Shown here piece by piece: positions 1,670 through 10,352 of a stretch of 10,359 nt of DNA (positions within the stretch are counted from its first letter, which is position 1; every line of letters begins with the position of its first letter). This DNA is from a virus (lineage: Duplodnaviria; Heunggongvirae; Uroviricota; Caudoviricetes). The stretch lies in the IMG/VR virus record IMGVR_UViG_3300000357_000164; one strand, given 5' to 3'. The notes under the pieces were generated by a model, which made no database searches, was not told the DNA's origin, and was given only the letters and a program-made list of their open reading frames with translations. A program made the translations under genes and the position numbers.

Positions 1670-2638
1670 CTAAATACGCACTTTAAGATAAGTCAGCCCC
1701 GGATGAAGCCAGTAAGCCGGCACTTTTTTAAAGGGTGGAGTATTAAAATCACGAAGAAGAGCCTCCCGCACAATTGCATCCTTATCAGCACCACTGGCCA
1801 GCGCTTCAATCTCAGCGGCTACCTGAAGATATNNNNNNNNNNNNNNNNNNNNNNNNNNNNNNNNNNNNNNNNNNNNNNNNNNNNNNNNNNNNNNNNNNNN
1901 NNNNNNNNNNNNNNNNNNNNNNNNNNNNNNNNNNNNNNNNNNNNNNNNNNNNNNNNNNNNNNNNNNNNNNNNNNNNNNNNNNNNNNNNNNNNNNNNNNNN
2001 NNNNNNNNNNNNNNNNNNNNNNNNNNNNNNNNTGAGATGGTTATTTTCCCAGCATCACCGGATACAACAAAGGATGGCCGGTTACACTCCCATTCCGGGT
2101 CACTGAAATTATCATTATGAATACTGAAACACTCTGCGAGATTTCTGCTCATCACTTTCCGACAATAATCGTCAAACGCAGCAAACTGCTTTTCATCGCC
2201 AGAAGGCACCAATATCGACCATTTCTTATTCAGCTCAACGACGTAGCTCTCCAGTTTTTCAATACGTGATTCAACATCATCTTTTTCTGACCGCAGTGTT
2301 GACGGCGGCATCTTCAGAGAACAAGTAATTCTTCCCGGTAGCTTTCCTTTGTAGGTTATCAACACATCCTGCGCCTCTAAAATTACGGGGCGCTTTTCCG
2401 GCAACGGTTCGTTCCATTCACATAACCCGGCAGCAACATCCATGAAAAACTGCTTCGCCTGCTTTTTCGCCTCAGCTTCGTAAAACTCCAGCGTGGCACC
2501 TTCAGTACGGTCAAGACTAATCGCCACATCTGGCAACAACAGCGACGCTTGCCCGTCACCTTCCGACTTCACAGTAACAGTAACCTTATCCCCGTAATTA
2601 TTTATCCCCTTAACAACCAGTTCATATTTTTTATTCAT
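1670..2638 (-). CDS. hypothetical protein (~322 aa) inserted between holin and endolysin; no recognisable family from sequence alone
   Basis: Long minus-strand ORF starting at ATG 2638 (the track starts at the in-frame GTG 2641). An SD (GGGGAGAG) lies inside the 3' end of the holin gene, and the holin stop TAA (2643-2645) is 4 nt from this ATG. Soluble-looking protein with a coiled-coil-like stretch (RSEKDDVESRIEKLESYVVELNKKW). The interior 1833-2032 is masked (200 N), so continuity of the N-terminal 200 aa with the C-terminal 54 aa is unproven. Stop TAG at 1670-1672, 36 nt before the endolysin ATG. Confidence 0.6.
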   Translation of the reverse strand: MNKKYELVVKGINNYGDKVTVTVKSEGDGQASLLLPDVAISLDRTEGATLEFYEAEAKKQAKQFFMDVAAGLCEWNEPLPEKRPVILEAQDVLITYKGKLPGRITCSLKMPPSTLRSEKDDVESRIEKLESYVVELNKKWSILVPSGDEKQFAAFDDYCRKVMSRNLAECFSIHNDNFSDPEWECNRPSFVVSGDAGKITISXXXXXXXXXXXXXXXXXXXXXXXXXXXXXXXXXXXXXXXXXXXXXXXXXXXXXXXXXXXXXXXXXXXYLQVAAEIEALASGADKDAIVREALLRDFNTPPFKKVPAYWLHPGLTYLKVRI

Positions 2639-3180: not shown

Positions 3181-3315
3181 GGGATTTTCTCGTTGAAAGG
3201 TGTTGTCAAGAAAGTGACTACGGAATNNNNNNNNNNNNNNNNNNNNNNNNNNNNNNNNNNNNNNNNNNNNNNNNNNNNNNNNNNNNNNNNNNNNNNNNNN
3301 NNNNNNNNNNNNNNN

Positions 3316-3615: not shown

Positions 3616-5745
3616 TCATGCCGCGATGTCCGCGTTGTTCACTTCCACCTTCACACTGTCAATCAGCAGCGTATATGTCGCCGCCTTTGATATGCCTGTC
3701 AGTTGCAGTTTGTCCGCCGCCCCTGATGCCGGAGATTTCACCAGTGTGAACGGCGTCCCCCGTTTCTCATCCAGTACCGGCGTCACCTGAATGCTGTTGT
3801 TTCCGGCAAACTCAAAAGCCAGTGTGTGCCATCCGTTATCAAAGACCCCGAACGTTTCCAGCTTCGCATTCGGCTTCTTGTGGTGCATCGCGTTCAGGTT
3901 CGTCGCATCCGTCTGCAGAAAGAAGGACATCAGCATGTCGTTGCCTTCCTCTGCCAGCGTCACTCCCTCNNNNNNNNNNNNNNNNNNNNNNNNNNNNNNN
4001 NNNNNNNNNNNNNNNNNNNNNNNNNNNNNNNNNNNNNNNNNNNNNNNNNNNNNNNNNNNNNNAACTGCCAGTAAATGCCCAGGGCAAACTGATTCGGCAC
4101 CAGTGAACCCGGCAACTTAAACCGTACGCTCACACGTCCCCCCTTCTTCAGTAACTCCACTCCCTGTCCGGCTGCATCATGCTCCAGAAACCAGATGTGG
4201 TTTTCCGGTTTATTCAGTTGCAGGGCCTTACCTCCCGTAGCCCCCGCATCACTGACCACCGCTTCAGCAATGTTTTTGTTAACATTGTCTCCGCTCGCCG
4301 GTTTGTGATAATAGCGCCAGCCCTGTGATGCCAGGTCTTCGCCGGACGCCAGCAGACTCATCAGGGTTCGGTTACTGACCGGGGCTTCCGGCTCTCTCTC
4401 CGTACCTTCACCGGAAGGTCCGGTGGGCTTCACCGTATCAGGCTGTTTTCCGGTAATGAATTCAGCGTTTCTCCCGGCATGCACAAGAATCGCCGTTGCC
4501 AGACGGTCGGAAATAATCCCACGACGTGCCCATGATCCAAAATGCGTTTTACGGTCAGCCGTCGTCCAGGTTTTGGCGTCCGTTCGACCACCGGCTCCGT
4601 AATACCCAATATCCGCAACATCCGGATCTTCTGACGGCTCGTTGGTACCCACATTTCGCCCGTTTTCATCCGTCATAAACGGCACAAAGAAGNNNNNNNN
4701 NNNNNNNNNNNNNNNNNNNNNNNNNNNNNNNNNNNNNNNNNNNNNNNNNNNNNNNNNNNNNNNNNNNNNNNNNNNNNNNNNNNNNNNNNNNTGCGGATTT
4801 CGTCTTGTATGCACCATACACCGCATCGTATTGCGAAGAATAAGTCTGCTTCCAGTAGTAGGTCGTGTCGCCACAAATCCAGGGAACCGATGACGGAGAG
4901 CCCCCGAGACACTGACCTCCGAATTCCGACAGGTCAGAACGATATTTTTCCACCATGGAATCAAACAGCCCCGGCTGGGTGGCGTATGCACCCTGTTTCA
5001 AATCAAACTCGCCCTGCATCCAGACCACTGCAAGCAGAATATTTTTAGGGTTGGCCTTCAGTGCGGCCTGAGTACGGGTAAGCAGGTCCTTGTACAGTGG
5101 CTTATCTACACCCCAGCGTGCCGAGGTCTCGCTTGCGCCGGTGGATTCGCTGAAGGTACCTTCATCGCCCGCCAAAAATGCAGAACCACCACGGCAGCAC
5201 GGAACCAGAAGAATACCGGCATTCGCCGGAATAAACGGCAACAATTTCTTCGCGATATGTAATCCCTGCCCCACGCATCCATACTGAGCTGCACTGGCTT
5301 TCGGGTGTGAAAACTTACTCAAATCCTGAACATCATGCAGGCAGTGGTCCGCAGGAATAATGTCATTGTAGTTACAGAACGCACCACCCGGCGTGACAGT
5401 GCTGCGACGCGCCAGCTGTTTAATACGCGGGTCCGGACGGTCATATGTCTCCGGCAGCGGAAGCCCTTCACCATACGCCATACCGTTTGACTGCCCGGCC
5501 AGGGCAACAACAAAGTAATACTCCGGGTTGCTGGTGGTGCTGATAACTGCGCCTTCTCCATCCGACGGCTTCACCACCACAGGTGTGGTGACATCACCTT
5601 CCGCCGCAATGGCCTGCATCAGGGTATAAGGCGTGATGGCCACCGGACTGCCAAATGGCTGCCACCCCTCCTTCAGTTTTTGTGTCAGTCGTTTCGCAAG
5701 GTCTGACGGCGATGCCGCCCTGACAACATCATAGTGTTTAAATGC
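3616..5745 (-). CDS. nanS-p: NanS-p-type phage sialate 9-O-acetylesterase (SASA/DUF303 esterase domain with C-terminal lectin-like region), interrupted by masked blocks
   Basis: Large minus-strand coding region with the SASA esterase GQSN motif (VALAGQSNGMAYGEG) and surrounding similarity to prophage NanS-p/YjhS-like esterases as recalled. The N-terminal part (AFKHYDVVRAASPSDLAKRLTQKLKEGWQPFGSPVA) resembles the DUF1737 region. The start lies inside N block 5746-5849. The coding frame differs on each side of N blocks 4693-4791 and 3970-4062 (three track ORFs: 4666..5964, 3960..4991, 3616..3963). Stop TGA at 3616-3618. Confidence 0.8.
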
Positions 5746-6017
5746 NNNNNNNNNNNNNNNNNNNNNNNNNNNNNNNNNNNNNNNNNNNNNNNNNNNNNNN
5801 NNNNNNNNNNNNNNNNNNNNNNNNNNNNNNNNNNNNNNNNNNNNNNNNNATTCTTTAAAATACCTGACATGTAATACAGAAAAAACACAAAACCATACCT
5901 TAAATAAAAACCTCATCATCAAGCAGATATGCATGGATAAACTACAAGACGAGATATAAACCACCCTGCATTTAAATAAACAATAAACAACATCAGAAAA
6001 ATAATTCTGCTCTATGG

Positions 6018-6084: not shown

Positions 6085-6245
6085 ATGAAGTGGATTGTGA
6101 TTGATACAGTTATCCAGCCATCATGCGGAATATCTTTTTCAGTCATATGGAGTAAAATAAAATTAATAATCTGGTATCAATCGGATGCTTTCTTACCTCC
6201 TGAAAGTATATTTACACTGACTCACACAGGTATCATGCTCAATAA
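6085..6245 (+). CDS. small hypothetical protein on the strand opposite the late operon (partial; runs into masked block)
   Basis: ATG at 6085 with SD AAGGA (6074-6078, 6-nt spacer). Translation [53 protein letters not shown]... continues into N block 6246-6336; the track ORF ends at 6348. AT-rich codon usage with 5 ATA codons in 53. Confidence 0.4.
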
Positions 6246-6475
6246 NNNNNNNNNNNNNNNNNNNNNNNNNNNNNNNNNNNNNNNNNNNNNNNNNNNNNNN
6301 NNNNNNNNNNNNNNNNNNNNNNNNNNNNNNNNNNNNTGCTACCTGTAACCATTTACAACGTAGCACCATTCAATAAAACATTCTGGAATTTAATCAAAAA
6401 CAGCCAGGAATGTCCTACAAATACAGATAACGTATTGAATGAATGCTTTAATAACCGTTGCACTCTGCAAATATG

Positions 6476-6509
6476 TCCTTATGGACTAAAACAACAAAGT
6501 CCATAAGGA
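6476..6509. repeat. perfect 12-bp inverted repeat with 10-nt spacer (hairpin or palindromic binding site)
   Basis: TCCTTATGGACT (6476-6487) and AGTCCATAAGGA (6498-6509) are exact reverse complements; spacer AAAACAACAA. No clean U-tract follows on either strand. Confidence 0.6.
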
Positions 6510-6562: not shown

Positions 6563-6883
6563 GAGAGTGGCGCTATGTGCCATTGCATGGTGCCGGGTGC
6601 CTCCCGGTGAATTCAGTACCAGCACCTGAATCCGCGATTATCCCATATACCTACTCGCTGATTGCCCCTCCGCACNNNNNNNNNNNNNNNNNNNNNNNNN
6701 NNNNNNNNNNNNNNNNNNNNNNNNNNNNNNNNNNNNNNNNNNNNNNNNNNNNNNNNNNNNNNNNNNNNNNNNNNNNNNNNNNNNNNNNNNNNNNNNNNNN
6801 NNNNNNNNCCCCGCAAACCAGACAACAGTCAACCGCCTGAATTGTGAAGTATTTAAAAATTTCTCCCGCTAACTGATACCCGG

Positions 6884-7404: not shown

Positions 7405-7517
7405 TACTTAACAGAACTTTTATTTTTGACAAACATAAAATATTTTCAACAATATCCTGAGCCAGGTATATTTCAGTATAAGGCTCTGCCGGAAGGAATC
7501 TGGAAGAATGAATATAG

Positions 7518-7591
7518 CGCGCTGTACTGGATTCGAACCAGTGACCGATTGCTTAGAAGGCAATTGCTCTGTCCGGCTGAGCTAACAACGC
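7518..7591 (-). tRNA. tRNA-Arg (anticodon UCU), phage-borne; 3' CCA not encoded
   Basis: Minus-strand sequence GCGTTGTTAGCTCAGCCGGACAGAGCAATTGCCTTCTAAGCAATCGGTCACTGGTTCGAATCCAGTACAGCGCG folds as a cloverleaf: 7-bp acceptor stem with one G-U, D arm GCTC/GAGC, anticodon loop CTTCTAA, T arm with GGTTCGAATCC. It resembles E. coli argU-type tRNA. The discriminator is followed by CTA rather than CCA. Confidence 0.85.
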
Positions 7592-7691
7592 TGAATACCG
7601 ATAATGGACCGCCATCGGGGACCCGCCCCCGCACCAACAACCCTGTTATCGTGTCGTCTGCTCTTCCTGATAAGCTAATGGCGGTTTGTGA

Positions 7692-7767
7692 TGGTGGCCC
7701 TTGCTGGATTTGAACCAGCGACCTGGCGATTATGAGTCGCTCGCTCTCACCACTGAGCTAAAGGGCC
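7692..7767 (-). tRNA. tRNA-Ile2-like (anticodon CAU, ileX/ileZ-type; could formally be Met)
   Basis: Minus-strand sequence GGCCCTTTAGCTCAGTGGTGAGAGCGAGCGACTCATAATCGCCAGGTCGCTGGTTCAAATCCAGCAAGGGCCACCA (76 nt, CCA encoded) is near-identical in architecture to E. coli ileX tRNA as recalled. Anticodon loop CTCATAA. Confidence 0.88.
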
Positions 7768-7883
7768 GGGAGCAGAATAATAACNNNNNNNNNNNNNNNN
7801 NNNNNNNNNNNNNNNNNNNNNNNNNNNNNNNNNNNNNNNNNNNNNNNNNNNNNNNNNNNNNNNNNNNNNNNNNATTAATTCCG

Positions 7884-7909
7884 CAATAAAAAACCCGCTC
7901 GGCGGCGGG
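7884..7909 (-). terminator. tR'-like intrinsic terminator downstream of late promoter
   Basis: Minus-strand hairpin CCCGC-CGCCGA-GCGGG (7894-7909) followed by TTTTTTAT (complement of 7886-7893). It lies about 45-65 nt downstream of the pR'-like promoter, as for lambdoid pR'/tR' units. Confidence 0.7.
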
Positions 7910-7958
7910 TTGTAGAAACTCTTCTAACGTCAGGCATAAAAAGCCCATTGTTATGACG

Positions 7959-7986
7959 AATTTACCACAGATTCCGGAAAAATCAA
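7959..7986 (-). promoter_or_regulatory. pR'-like late promoter (putative Q-utilisation region)
   Basis: On the minus strand: -35 TTGATT (7981-7986), 16-nt spacer, -10 TAAATT (7959-7964). The -10 hexamer is the same as lambda pR' as recalled. Located immediately after the Q stop codon (7992-7994) and upstream of the tR'-like hairpin. Confidence 0.55.
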
Positions 7987-7991
7987 CCTTG

Positions 7992-8971
7992 TTACCTAGT
8001 TACCTTTTTTAACTGCCGCTCAGCCCATGCTTCTTCAATATCAAACCGGGTCACCAGCGCATCATAGAATTTCTTAACTGTTTTTTCCCATGACGCGCGT
8101 GTTATCTGGTTTGTCACCTCGCATATAGCATTAAATGCCTCCGTTGATGGTAGTCTTTCATAGCCACGACCACCACAACGCTGGCAGTCTCTGATAACAG
8201 GCATACCACGTTTTACCGACTCTTCACGATGAATGGCGACACCACGCCCACGGCAATCCTTACAGGCGGTGGAAACCTCACCCTTTCCGCCACACTCNNN
8301 NNNNNNNNNNNNNNNNNNNNNNNNNNNNNNNNNNNNNNNNNNNNNNNNNNNNNNNNNNNNNNNNNNNNNNNNNNNNNNNNNNNNNNNNNNNNNNNNNNNN
8401 NNNNNNNNNNNNNNNNNNNNNNNNNNNAAGACGAATACACACCTTTCGTACACTTTGCCCATACCGGCGGCTTACCATCCGGATACTGGACCTTGTTTGT
8501 AAAAACTACGCTTTCAATAAATTTTTCCCCATAGCAACAAGGGCACTGCTTTTTACTCGCTGCGCTGCGGGCATAATCCTCAAAAGCGTACGAAGCCATA
8601 ATGCGCATCACTACCGGTTTTATTTCTGCCGGAAGTTTTCTCAACGCCGCCACANNNNNNNNNNNNNNNNNNNNNNNNNNNNNNNNNNNNNNNNNNNNNN
8701 NNNNNNNNNNNNNNNNNNNNNNNNNNNNNNNNNNNNNNNNNNNNNNNNNNNNNNNNNNNNNNNNNNNNNNNGTTGCCCGCGCCCTGTCATTCATACTGAT
8801 GCCCATTTTCCCCAGGAACGCAGAAAAACCCATCTCAGCCCGATTCTGTGTCATGCCCTGCGCGGCCATCACATCAGTGATACTCAGCGCATCTTTTGAC
8901 GTTGAGGCCGATGCATCGGTCAGGCCAGGGGATTTTGGGGAGTAGTATTTCGGTAAATCTTCCAGTTTCAT
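7992..8971 (-). CDS. Q: late-gene antiterminator Q (lambda Q family), interrupted by two masked blocks with an apparent frame change
   Basis: N-terminus MKLEDLPKYYSPKSPGLTDASASTSKDALSITDVMAAQGMTQNRAEMGFSAFLGK parallels lambda Q (MRLESVAKFHSPKSPMMSDSPRATASDSLSGTDVMAAMGMAQSQ...). Mid-region MASYAFEDYARSAASKKQ matches LATFAYADYCRSAATPGA. The C-terminal part in a different frame (7992..8297: CKDCRGRGVAI...DCQRCGGRGYERLPS...WEKTVKKFYDALV...KKVTR) matches the lambda Q zinc-finger and C-terminus. ATG at 8971 with an AGG-containing SD. Confidence 0.8.
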
Positions 8972-9686: not shown

Positions 9687-10352
9687 CTAACGTCTTTTCC
9701 TGGAGTGGGGGCTGTTGCTGGTGGACGTGNNNNNNNNNNNNNNNNNNNNNNNNNNNNNNNNNNNNNNNNNNNNNNNNNNNNNNNNNNNNNNNNNNNNNNN
9801 NNNNNNNNNNNNNNNNNNNNNNNNNNNNNNNNNNNNNNNNNTCAGTATGCTGGTGGCAGTCTGTTCTCCCGGTACGATGTCACTCTCACGGTATACGGAG
9901 CGGATTTTTTCCACCGGTAATCCCAGTGAACGACACAATACAGACTCCGGAAGCGCATCAGCCACCTGATTGCAGACCGCCCACCAGGATAATTCGGCCA
10001 GCGATAACTCCCTCTCCTGCGTACCGCTGATTGCGTGACGGATGNNNNNNNNNNNNNNNNNNNNNNNNNNNNNNNNNNNNNNNNNNNNNNNNNNNNNNNN
10101 NNNNNNNNNNNNNNNNNNNNNNNNNNNNNNNNNNNNTGCTGACAAGTTTTGGTGAGCAAGTTGCTCAAGTGATTCTGAGGTCTGGTCACACAACTGGTTG
10201 TCGCAGTGCCAGCACAACACCATTGCGCCGGTACCATAACGGTGAATGACGGTTTCACTGTGGTGATAATCACCGTGTGGCCACTGGCAGGATTTAATAT
10301 GGCGCAACAGCCAGTCAGACAGTGCACCAGCGCCGCCAGCAGCACGAATCAC
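9687..10352 (-). CDS. nin-region ORF(s), partial and interrupted by two masked blocks; may be two genes
   Basis: Open minus-strand frame with Cys/His-rich segment HIKSCQWPHGDYHHSETVIHRYGTGAMVLCWHCDNQLCDQ, a middle segment ...ELSLAELSWWAVCNQVADALPESVLCRSLGLPVEK..., and a basic C-terminus TSTSNSPHSRKRR (NinE-like tail). N blocks 9730-9841 and 10045-10136 hide the junctions. The other frames have shadow-like composition. The frame is still open at the window edge, so the start may lie beyond it. Confidence 0.35.
   Translation of the reverse strand: MIRAAGGAGALSDWLLRHIKSCQWPHGDYHHSETVIHRYGTGAMVLCWHCDNQLCDQTSESLEQLAHQNLSAXXXXXXXXXXXXXXXXXXXXXXXXXXXXXXXIRHAISGTQERELSLAELSWWAVCNQVADALPESVLCRSLGLPVEKIRSVYRESDIVPGEQTATSILXXXXXXXXXXXXXXXXXXXXXXXXXXXXXXXXXXXXXXTSTSNSPHSRKRR

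Follow-up and report, generated by a model that had tools for sequence, protein, structure and literature searches.

The DNA stretch analysed here (10,359 nucleotides, in the following referred to as the window) carries two tRNA genes, ileZ and argO. Together with the remains of a third gene, argN, they very probably represent an ordinary lambdoid ileZ/argN/argO cluster in a prophage that is not a Shiga toxin (Stx) phage, with late expression, a role in codon supply and an argO transcript whose CUA end is repaired to CCA. The element as such is known; it is the lambdoid ileZ/argO pair of the phiP27-like two-tRNA type, which is annotated in hundreds of RefSeq genomes. Only two details are mildly new, namely an unannotated pseudo-tRNA derived from argN and a recurrent argO allele in which the terminal CCA is changed to CUA.

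Exactly two tRNA genes were called by ARAGORN in the window, both on the minus strand: a tRNA-Arg(tct) at 7517-7591 and a tRNA with the anticodon cat at 7692-7767. Both match the Rfam model RF00005 over its full length (model positions 1-71), with standard D, anticodon and T arms. The scores of 68.0 bits for the Arg tRNA (E = 1.8e-13) and 72.5 bits for the CAU tRNA (E = 1e-14), compared to a gathering score of 29 bits, are therefore far beyond chance. We relied on these covariance-model scores because minimum free energy (MFE) folds of lone tRNAs were uninformative (z = -1.8 for argO, z = -1.3 for the argN remnant). Combining ARAGORN, Rfam, alignment and PGAP annotation, the ileZ-type tRNA with anticodon CAU occupies 7692..7767 on the minus strand and encodes its 3′ CCA (...GGGCC-A-CCA), and the argO-type tRNA-Arg with anticodon UCU occupies 7518..7591 on the same strand up to the discriminator G73. 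The latter reads GCGUUGU...ACAGCGC-G73 followed by CTA, with a U4·G69 wobble in the acceptor stem. An earlier note on this DNA had placed an Ile-CAU and an Arg-UCU tRNA at 7518-7767 without stating the strand; its coordinates were right, and the G-U pair that it reported in the Arg acceptor stem is real. The identical genes in the prophage of E. coli EcPF5 are named tRNA-Ile and tRNA-Arg by PGAP, the tRNA-Arg without a pseudogene flag.

The CAU anticodon alone is shared by tRNA-Met and tRNA-Ile2, which TilS tells apart by the base pairs C4-G69 and C5-G68. Both pairs are common to ileZ and K-12 ileX, and the elongator tRNA gene metT of K-12 does not have them. The identity of ileZ amounts to 76/76 positions with the copy of Stx2a_WGPS8, 68/76 with ileX and 52/77 with metT. 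Based on the shared base pairs, the closer similarity to ileX than to metT and the PGAP name, the CAU gene is assigned to the tRNA-Ile2 type, the identity that it would acquire after lysidine modification. For argO including its trailer, 79/82 positions are identical to Stx2a argO and 57/82 to K-12 argU, of which A20, C35, U36 and G73 are all kept in the alignment. Both genes thus have the anticodons and identity positions of their K-12 counterparts ileX and argU, but with identities of only 68/76 and 57/82 they are phage paralogues rather than copies of the host genes. The sequence of ileZ is near-invariant across ten prophages, and argO of E. coli O157:H7 FRIK804 contains a compensatory C-to-G / G-to-C swap in the T stem; together, these observations suggest selection or constraint on this tRNA gene family. 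In argO of EC20017429 the T-stem change is found on one side only and is accompanied by G3T and A27G, and this copy is therefore probably impaired.

The cluster originally comprising three genes is still recognisable in the spacer. When argN of Stx2 phages was aligned, with argN of strain LZHX12 also used as intact reference, it mapped onto the 100-nt spacer between ileZ and argO, identifying a decayed argN (pseudo-tRNA-Arg UCG) at 7605..7684 on the minus strand. The 5′ acceptor strand, the D arm, the T stem and the 3′ acceptor strand with U-CCA are kept, a region of ~27 nt corresponding to the anticodon arm has been exchanged for unrelated sequence, and the T loop reads GCGGGT instead of TTCGAGT. 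Over the interval 7480-7784, neither ARAGORN nor Rfam at E<=10 called a third tRNA besides ileZ and argO; the further Rfam matches in this interval (Plastid-ycf2, SNORD103, YrlA and SAM_alpha) are far below the gathering score and due to chance. The MFE fold of the remnant is cloverleaf-like, with a hairpin of 7 bp and a 3-nt loop at the site of the anticodon arm, and is no better than that of shuffled sequences (z = -1.3). The Stx2e phage phiP27, whose annotation lists only ileZ and argO, has an identical replaced centre. A variant of the remnant with an intact T arm carries the PGAP label 'tRNA-OTHER', and in LZHX12 the anticodon arm is intact and the T loop altered; since each of these two carries one of the lesions, the two lesions assort independently among prophages. 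Depending on the genome, the T arm of the remnant contains a tract of 5 to 10 G, as expected for unconstrained DNA. Judged from the alignment, argN is plainly decayed and non-functional. Its remnant, which is unannotated, was found in at least 1,827 of 5,426 complete E. coli genomes, and it could persist as an RNase P site between ileZ and argO or as a stable tRNA-like RNA rather than as pure debris.

The masked block adjacent to the cluster holds no tRNA. The 89 N at 7785..7873 stand for only 8 nt (TACGGACC) in EcPF5, in mEp460 and in 24 of 28 IMG/VR relatives with the CTA allele, leaving no room for a tRNA. Inflation of this kind is general, as each of the 12 N runs in the window (1833-2032, 3227-3315, 3970-4062, 4693-4791, 5746-5849, 6246-6336, 6676-6808, 7785-7873, 8298-8427, 8655-8771, 9730-9841 and 10045-10136) is 76 to 97 nt longer than the EcPF5 stretch that it replaces. 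Besides the 89 N for 8 nt, 91 N standing for 5 nt may serve as an example. Because every N run is inflated, mask length is uninformative on hidden content. The inflated masks also shifted the reading frames and thereby fragmented the ORF list of the window, in which Q, nanS-p and IraM appear in pieces. The earlier note had argued that a third tRNA, if present, could only lie inside 7785-7873. This conclusion has to be corrected, as the inflated mask covers just 8 bases at the tRNA site and the remnant of argN is located in the ileZ-argO spacer.

Wherever the window is unmasked, it matches a prophage of the urine isolate E. coli EcPF5 with 100% identity, and 283 complete E. coli genomes contain a place that spans 80% or more of the 4,860-nt query. 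According to the RefSeq annotation of EcPF5, the order on the minus strand is DUF968, RusA, Q, tRNA-Ile, tRNA-Arg and DUF3927, followed by IraM (on the opposite strand), a SASA-family esterase of the nanS-p type, DUF1378, DUF826, holin, lysozyme and an Rz-like lysis protein. Mapping of this annotation placed the gene of the Q-type antitermination protein at 7992..8971 on the minus strand, broken by two N blocks and with its stop codon at 7994..7992. No stx genes are present at the 100%-identical EcPF5 locus, where DUF3927, IraM and the SASA esterase occupy their place. By its gene content, the window is a lambdoid prophage without Shiga toxin. Stx phages match it across the tRNA cluster only (7500-7784), with ~88% identity. 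The comparison with the Stx-phage cluster made in the earlier note holds for the homology of ileZ and argO and for their position behind Q, but not for the toxin genes. Several further features of the locus were observed. The anti-adapter gene iraM at 6085-6506 (plus strand) lies antisense within the late region, between the tRNAs and nanS-p. The esterase of the nanS-p type (653 aa, window positions 3616 to about 5750, minus strand) comes after the tRNAs as in Stx phages. Pseudogenes are annotated near the tRNAs in the EcPF5 prophage, and the lysozyme-gene stretch at 1263-1643 has an 84%-identical second copy ~2 kb further in EcPF5 (L001 14-393), which points to a duplicated or mosaic segment in the lysis region.

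In Stx2 phages of the 933W type (Stx2a_WGPS8, Stx2_EH2201), the cluster has the order ileZ, argN (UCG) and argO, with argN between the other two genes and not upstream of ileZ. As in these phages, the cluster of the window lies 3′ of Q and precedes the moron and lysis genes. Its ileZ matches theirs at 100%, its argO differs from theirs only by A69G and by CTA in place of CCA, and the flanks of argN are recognisably homologous. Unlike Stx2 phages, the window has no stx genes, its argN is non-functional and its Q/tR′ module is a different one. With the Stx2e phage phiP27 it shares the two-tRNA ileZ/argO layout, an identical 32-nt remnant centre and 93.7% identity over the cluster. In phiP27, however, the T arm of the remnant is almost intact, argO has A69 and CCA, stx2e follows downstream, and a DNA methylase gene is located directly upstream where the window has Q. 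Escherichia phage mEp460_ev081 is the closest phage record, with 98.8% identity over 405 nt, the same remnant and the same G69, but its argO ends with CCA.

Just after the stop codon of Q, comparison by eye with pR′ of lambda revealed a candidate late promoter at 7947..7986 (minus strand). It consists of a -35 box TTGATT, a 16-nt spacer, a -10 box TAAATT and, after 6 nt, the pause-like sequence AACAAT-GGG; the respective elements of lambda pR′ are TTGACT, 17 nt, TAAATT, 6 nt and AACGAT-GGG. With 8/12 hexamer matches the candidate is under the promoter scanner threshold of 9 and hence unlisted, and from its resemblance to lambda pR′ we infer that it is the pR′ of this prophage. A terminator scan on the unmasked twin of the window detected a tR′-like intrinsic terminator at 7882..7911 (minus strand), which consists of AACCCGCCGCCGAGCGGGTT followed by TTTTATTGCG. 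The short terminated transcript from pR′ to tR′ is predicted to be about 65 to 70 nt in length. The start of ileZ is located ~35 nt past the T tract of the terminator, and in the promoter scan no promoter-like site was found on the tRNA strand from the terminator to ileZ. As the cluster follows Q, the pR′-like site and tR′, with no such site between terminator and ileZ, the tRNAs would be part of the Q-dependent late transcript, as in Stx phages. Most likely, they would be made mainly in lytic growth, when Q permits readthrough of tR′, and released from the late transcript by RNase P and RNase E. The CAU anticodon of ileZ, converted by TilS to its lysidine form, would then read AUA, and the UCU anticodon of argO would read AGA and, more weakly, AGG.

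The 3′ end of argO deserves particular attention. A genomically encoded CCA is present in ileZ but absent from argO, which has CTA at 7515..7517 on the minus strand (read 7517..7515), as seen in the sequence and its alignment and as already noticed before. All chromosomal tRNA genes of E. coli are stated to encode CCA, and CCA-less precursors in other organisms are handled by RNase BN/Z (PMC2241853, PMC2777011). CCA was found at the argO end in mEp460 and in every other aligned copy. Since argO combines A69 with CCA in Stx2 phages, G69 with CCA in mEp460 and G69 with CTA in the window, the alignment identifies CTA as a single C75-to-T point mutation on the G69 background. Among the complete E. 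coli genomes (n = 5,426), the exact 71-mer centred on CTA was detected in 266 and the same 71-mer with CCA in 673; among IMG/VR stretches, 29 have CTA and 110 have CCA. In GenBank phage records the CTA allele was found in 0 of 50,697, and it is therefore known from resident prophages only, in which selection on a tRNA of the lytic phase may be weak. Genomes carrying CTA contain argO at 1 to 4 places per record.

The body of argO is identical in all 29 IMG/VR copies with CTA. In 4 of the 28 IMG/VR CTA loci with enough upstream sequence, the upstream module differs from that of the window, and these 4 loci have no window-type tR′ upstream of ileZ. In total, the CTA allele was seen with at least 3 different upstream modules, which would mean that it has moved between prophage backgrounds or that upstream modules were exchanged. 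Considering its occurrence in 266 genomes, in 29 IMG/VR stretches and behind several upstream modules, the allele is evidently real, not very rare and persistent through some recombination. An origin of CTA or A69G as the integration scar of a downstream element was ruled out by shared downstream sequence: the downstream 300 nt are the same for both alleles, at >=97% identity in 26/26 CTA and 75/77 CCA loci. The presence of A69 with the same trailer type in AVS0093 likewise argues against such a scar.

Owing to the C75-to-T change, the argO transcript would end with G73-C-U-A. Most likely, trimming by host 3′ exonucleases or RNase BN would proceed as far as C74 or G73, CCA would then be restored by the CCA-adding enzyme, and only after this repair would the tRNA be functional. 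E. coli possesses a CCA-adding enzyme and 3′ trimming nucleases able to restore such ends, and those tRNAs of phage T4 that lack CCA depend on RNase BN and the CCA-adding enzyme of this host for their maturation. The argO gene of the window resembles the T4 genes in that it is phage-borne, lacks an encoded CCA and would need trimming and addition by E. coli. In T4, however, the lack of CCA is ancestral and conserved in several tRNAs, whereas in the window it is a recent point mutation of a gene that encoded CCA.

Codon use was counted on the unmasked twin with its annotated genes and is given as ATA+AGA+AGG per 1000 codons. The cargo genes (nanS-p, IraM and DUF3927) have 13.6 of these rare codons, the lysis-region genes 23.7 and the early/regulatory genes 30.5, and the cargo is significantly lower than the backbone with 28.6 (Fisher p = 0.015). 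For 15 K-12 chromosomal genes a value of 4.8 was obtained; rare-codon use of the prophage is thus 3 to 6 times that of the K-12 gene sample. This enrichment throughout the prophage is consistent with the general view that phage tRNAs serve codon supply (PMC7946995), and ileZ and argO would supplement tRNAs that are scarce in the host but needed by a prophage rich in rare codons. The lower load in the genes 3′ of the tRNAs (15.8 per 1000, compared to 30.5 in the early genes upstream) fits poorly with a simple model in which the tRNAs serve the late genes. Within the cargo, the nanS-p esterase has 6.1 rare codons per 1000, unusually few compared to the rest of the prophage, and the only ATA-rich gene is iraM, in which 6/13 Ile codons are ATA and no rare Arg codons occur. 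The ATA-heavy open reading frame that the earlier note had pointed out at 6085 corresponds to iraM, and this part was correct; the gene is, however, located on the strand opposite to the tRNAs and the late operon. As rare codons in the cargo are below those of the backbone, there is no cargo-specific dependence on these tRNAs, and with 13.6, 23.7 and 30.5 per 1000 in cargo, lysis and early genes the proposal that cargo expression depends on them is not supported. A pseudogene call for the Arg tRNA and rare-codon use in the cargo no higher than in the backbone had been named beforehand as the signs that would speak against the proposal; argO is not called a pseudogene by the scanners, and codon use of the cargo is indeed not above that of the backbone.

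Four other explanations have to be weighed against CCA repair and codon supply by an ordinary cluster. The most serious of them, which we consider possible but rather doubtful, is that argO-CUA is crippled or dead and drifts neutrally in a resident prophage whose tRNA cluster is decaying, with argU and other prophage copies of argO compensating for the loss. C75 is required for tRNA function at the ribosome. The neighbouring argN has already decayed, other argO copies are damaged too, for example that of EC20017429 with its one-sided T-stem change and G3T, pseudogenes lie nearby and CTA is absent from all GenBank phage records. The mutation may also be tolerated, as the same anticodon is provided by argU of the host and, in many genomes, by another argO copy in a prophage. 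Against this reading, the tRNA body is otherwise intact (68 bits), the trimming nucleases and the CCA-adding enzyme of E. coli can restore such ends, and no further decay is seen in 266 genomes with several upstream modules, the bodies of all 29/29 IMG/VR copies being identical. Faulty sequencing or assembly of a normal CCA gene would explain that just one base differs from the closest phage record, mEp460, but this reading has practically no probability left. It was ruled out by the recurrence of the 71-mer with CTA across independent assemblies, namely 266 complete genomes and 29 IMG/VR stretches.

It is quite improbable that the tRNAs mainly replace host tRNAs depleted or cleaved by anticodon nucleases and toxins instead of matching codon use. 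Replacement of nuclease-cleaved host tRNAs is a general idea for phage tRNAs, and the modest rare-codon load 3′ of the cluster would agree with it. No linked nuclease or defence gene is found here, however, and the anticodons belong to the rarest decoders of E. coli (AUA, AGA), precisely the codons in which prophage genes are enriched 3 to 6 times. Even lower is the probability of the combination of a third tRNA inside the mask and cargo expression that depends on the tRNAs. Three tRNAs are indeed carried by Stx2 phages, and the ATA share of IraM (6/13 Ile codons) would be in line with such a dependence; this reading is, however, opposed by the 8-nt length of the block in relatives, the inflation of all 12 N blocks, the mapping of argN to the spacer, the lower rare-codon load of the cargo and the position of IraM on the opposite strand. 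An ordinary ileZ/argN/argO cluster with a repaired argO therefore remains our preferred explanation.

Beyond correct annotation, the cluster is of little importance, since lambdoid and Stx prophages are well known to carry it as an accessory. As for the 'missing' argN, it survives as an unannotated pseudo-tRNA that is common in E. coli, being present in about a third of the genomes. With argO-CUA, ~5% of complete E. coli genomes stably carry a natural CCA-less tRNA gene. We regard it as unlikely, though conceivable, that argO-CUA as a stable CCA-less tRNA gene of E. coli and the argN remnant as a persisting tRNA-like signal or RNA together amount to something possibly unreported. If argO-CUA is functional, its tRNA would be a natural substrate whose maturation requires the CCA-adding enzyme and perhaps RNase BN. 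The recurrent CCA-to-CUA allele could offer a naturally occurring case in which to test CCA repair and the function of RNase BN.
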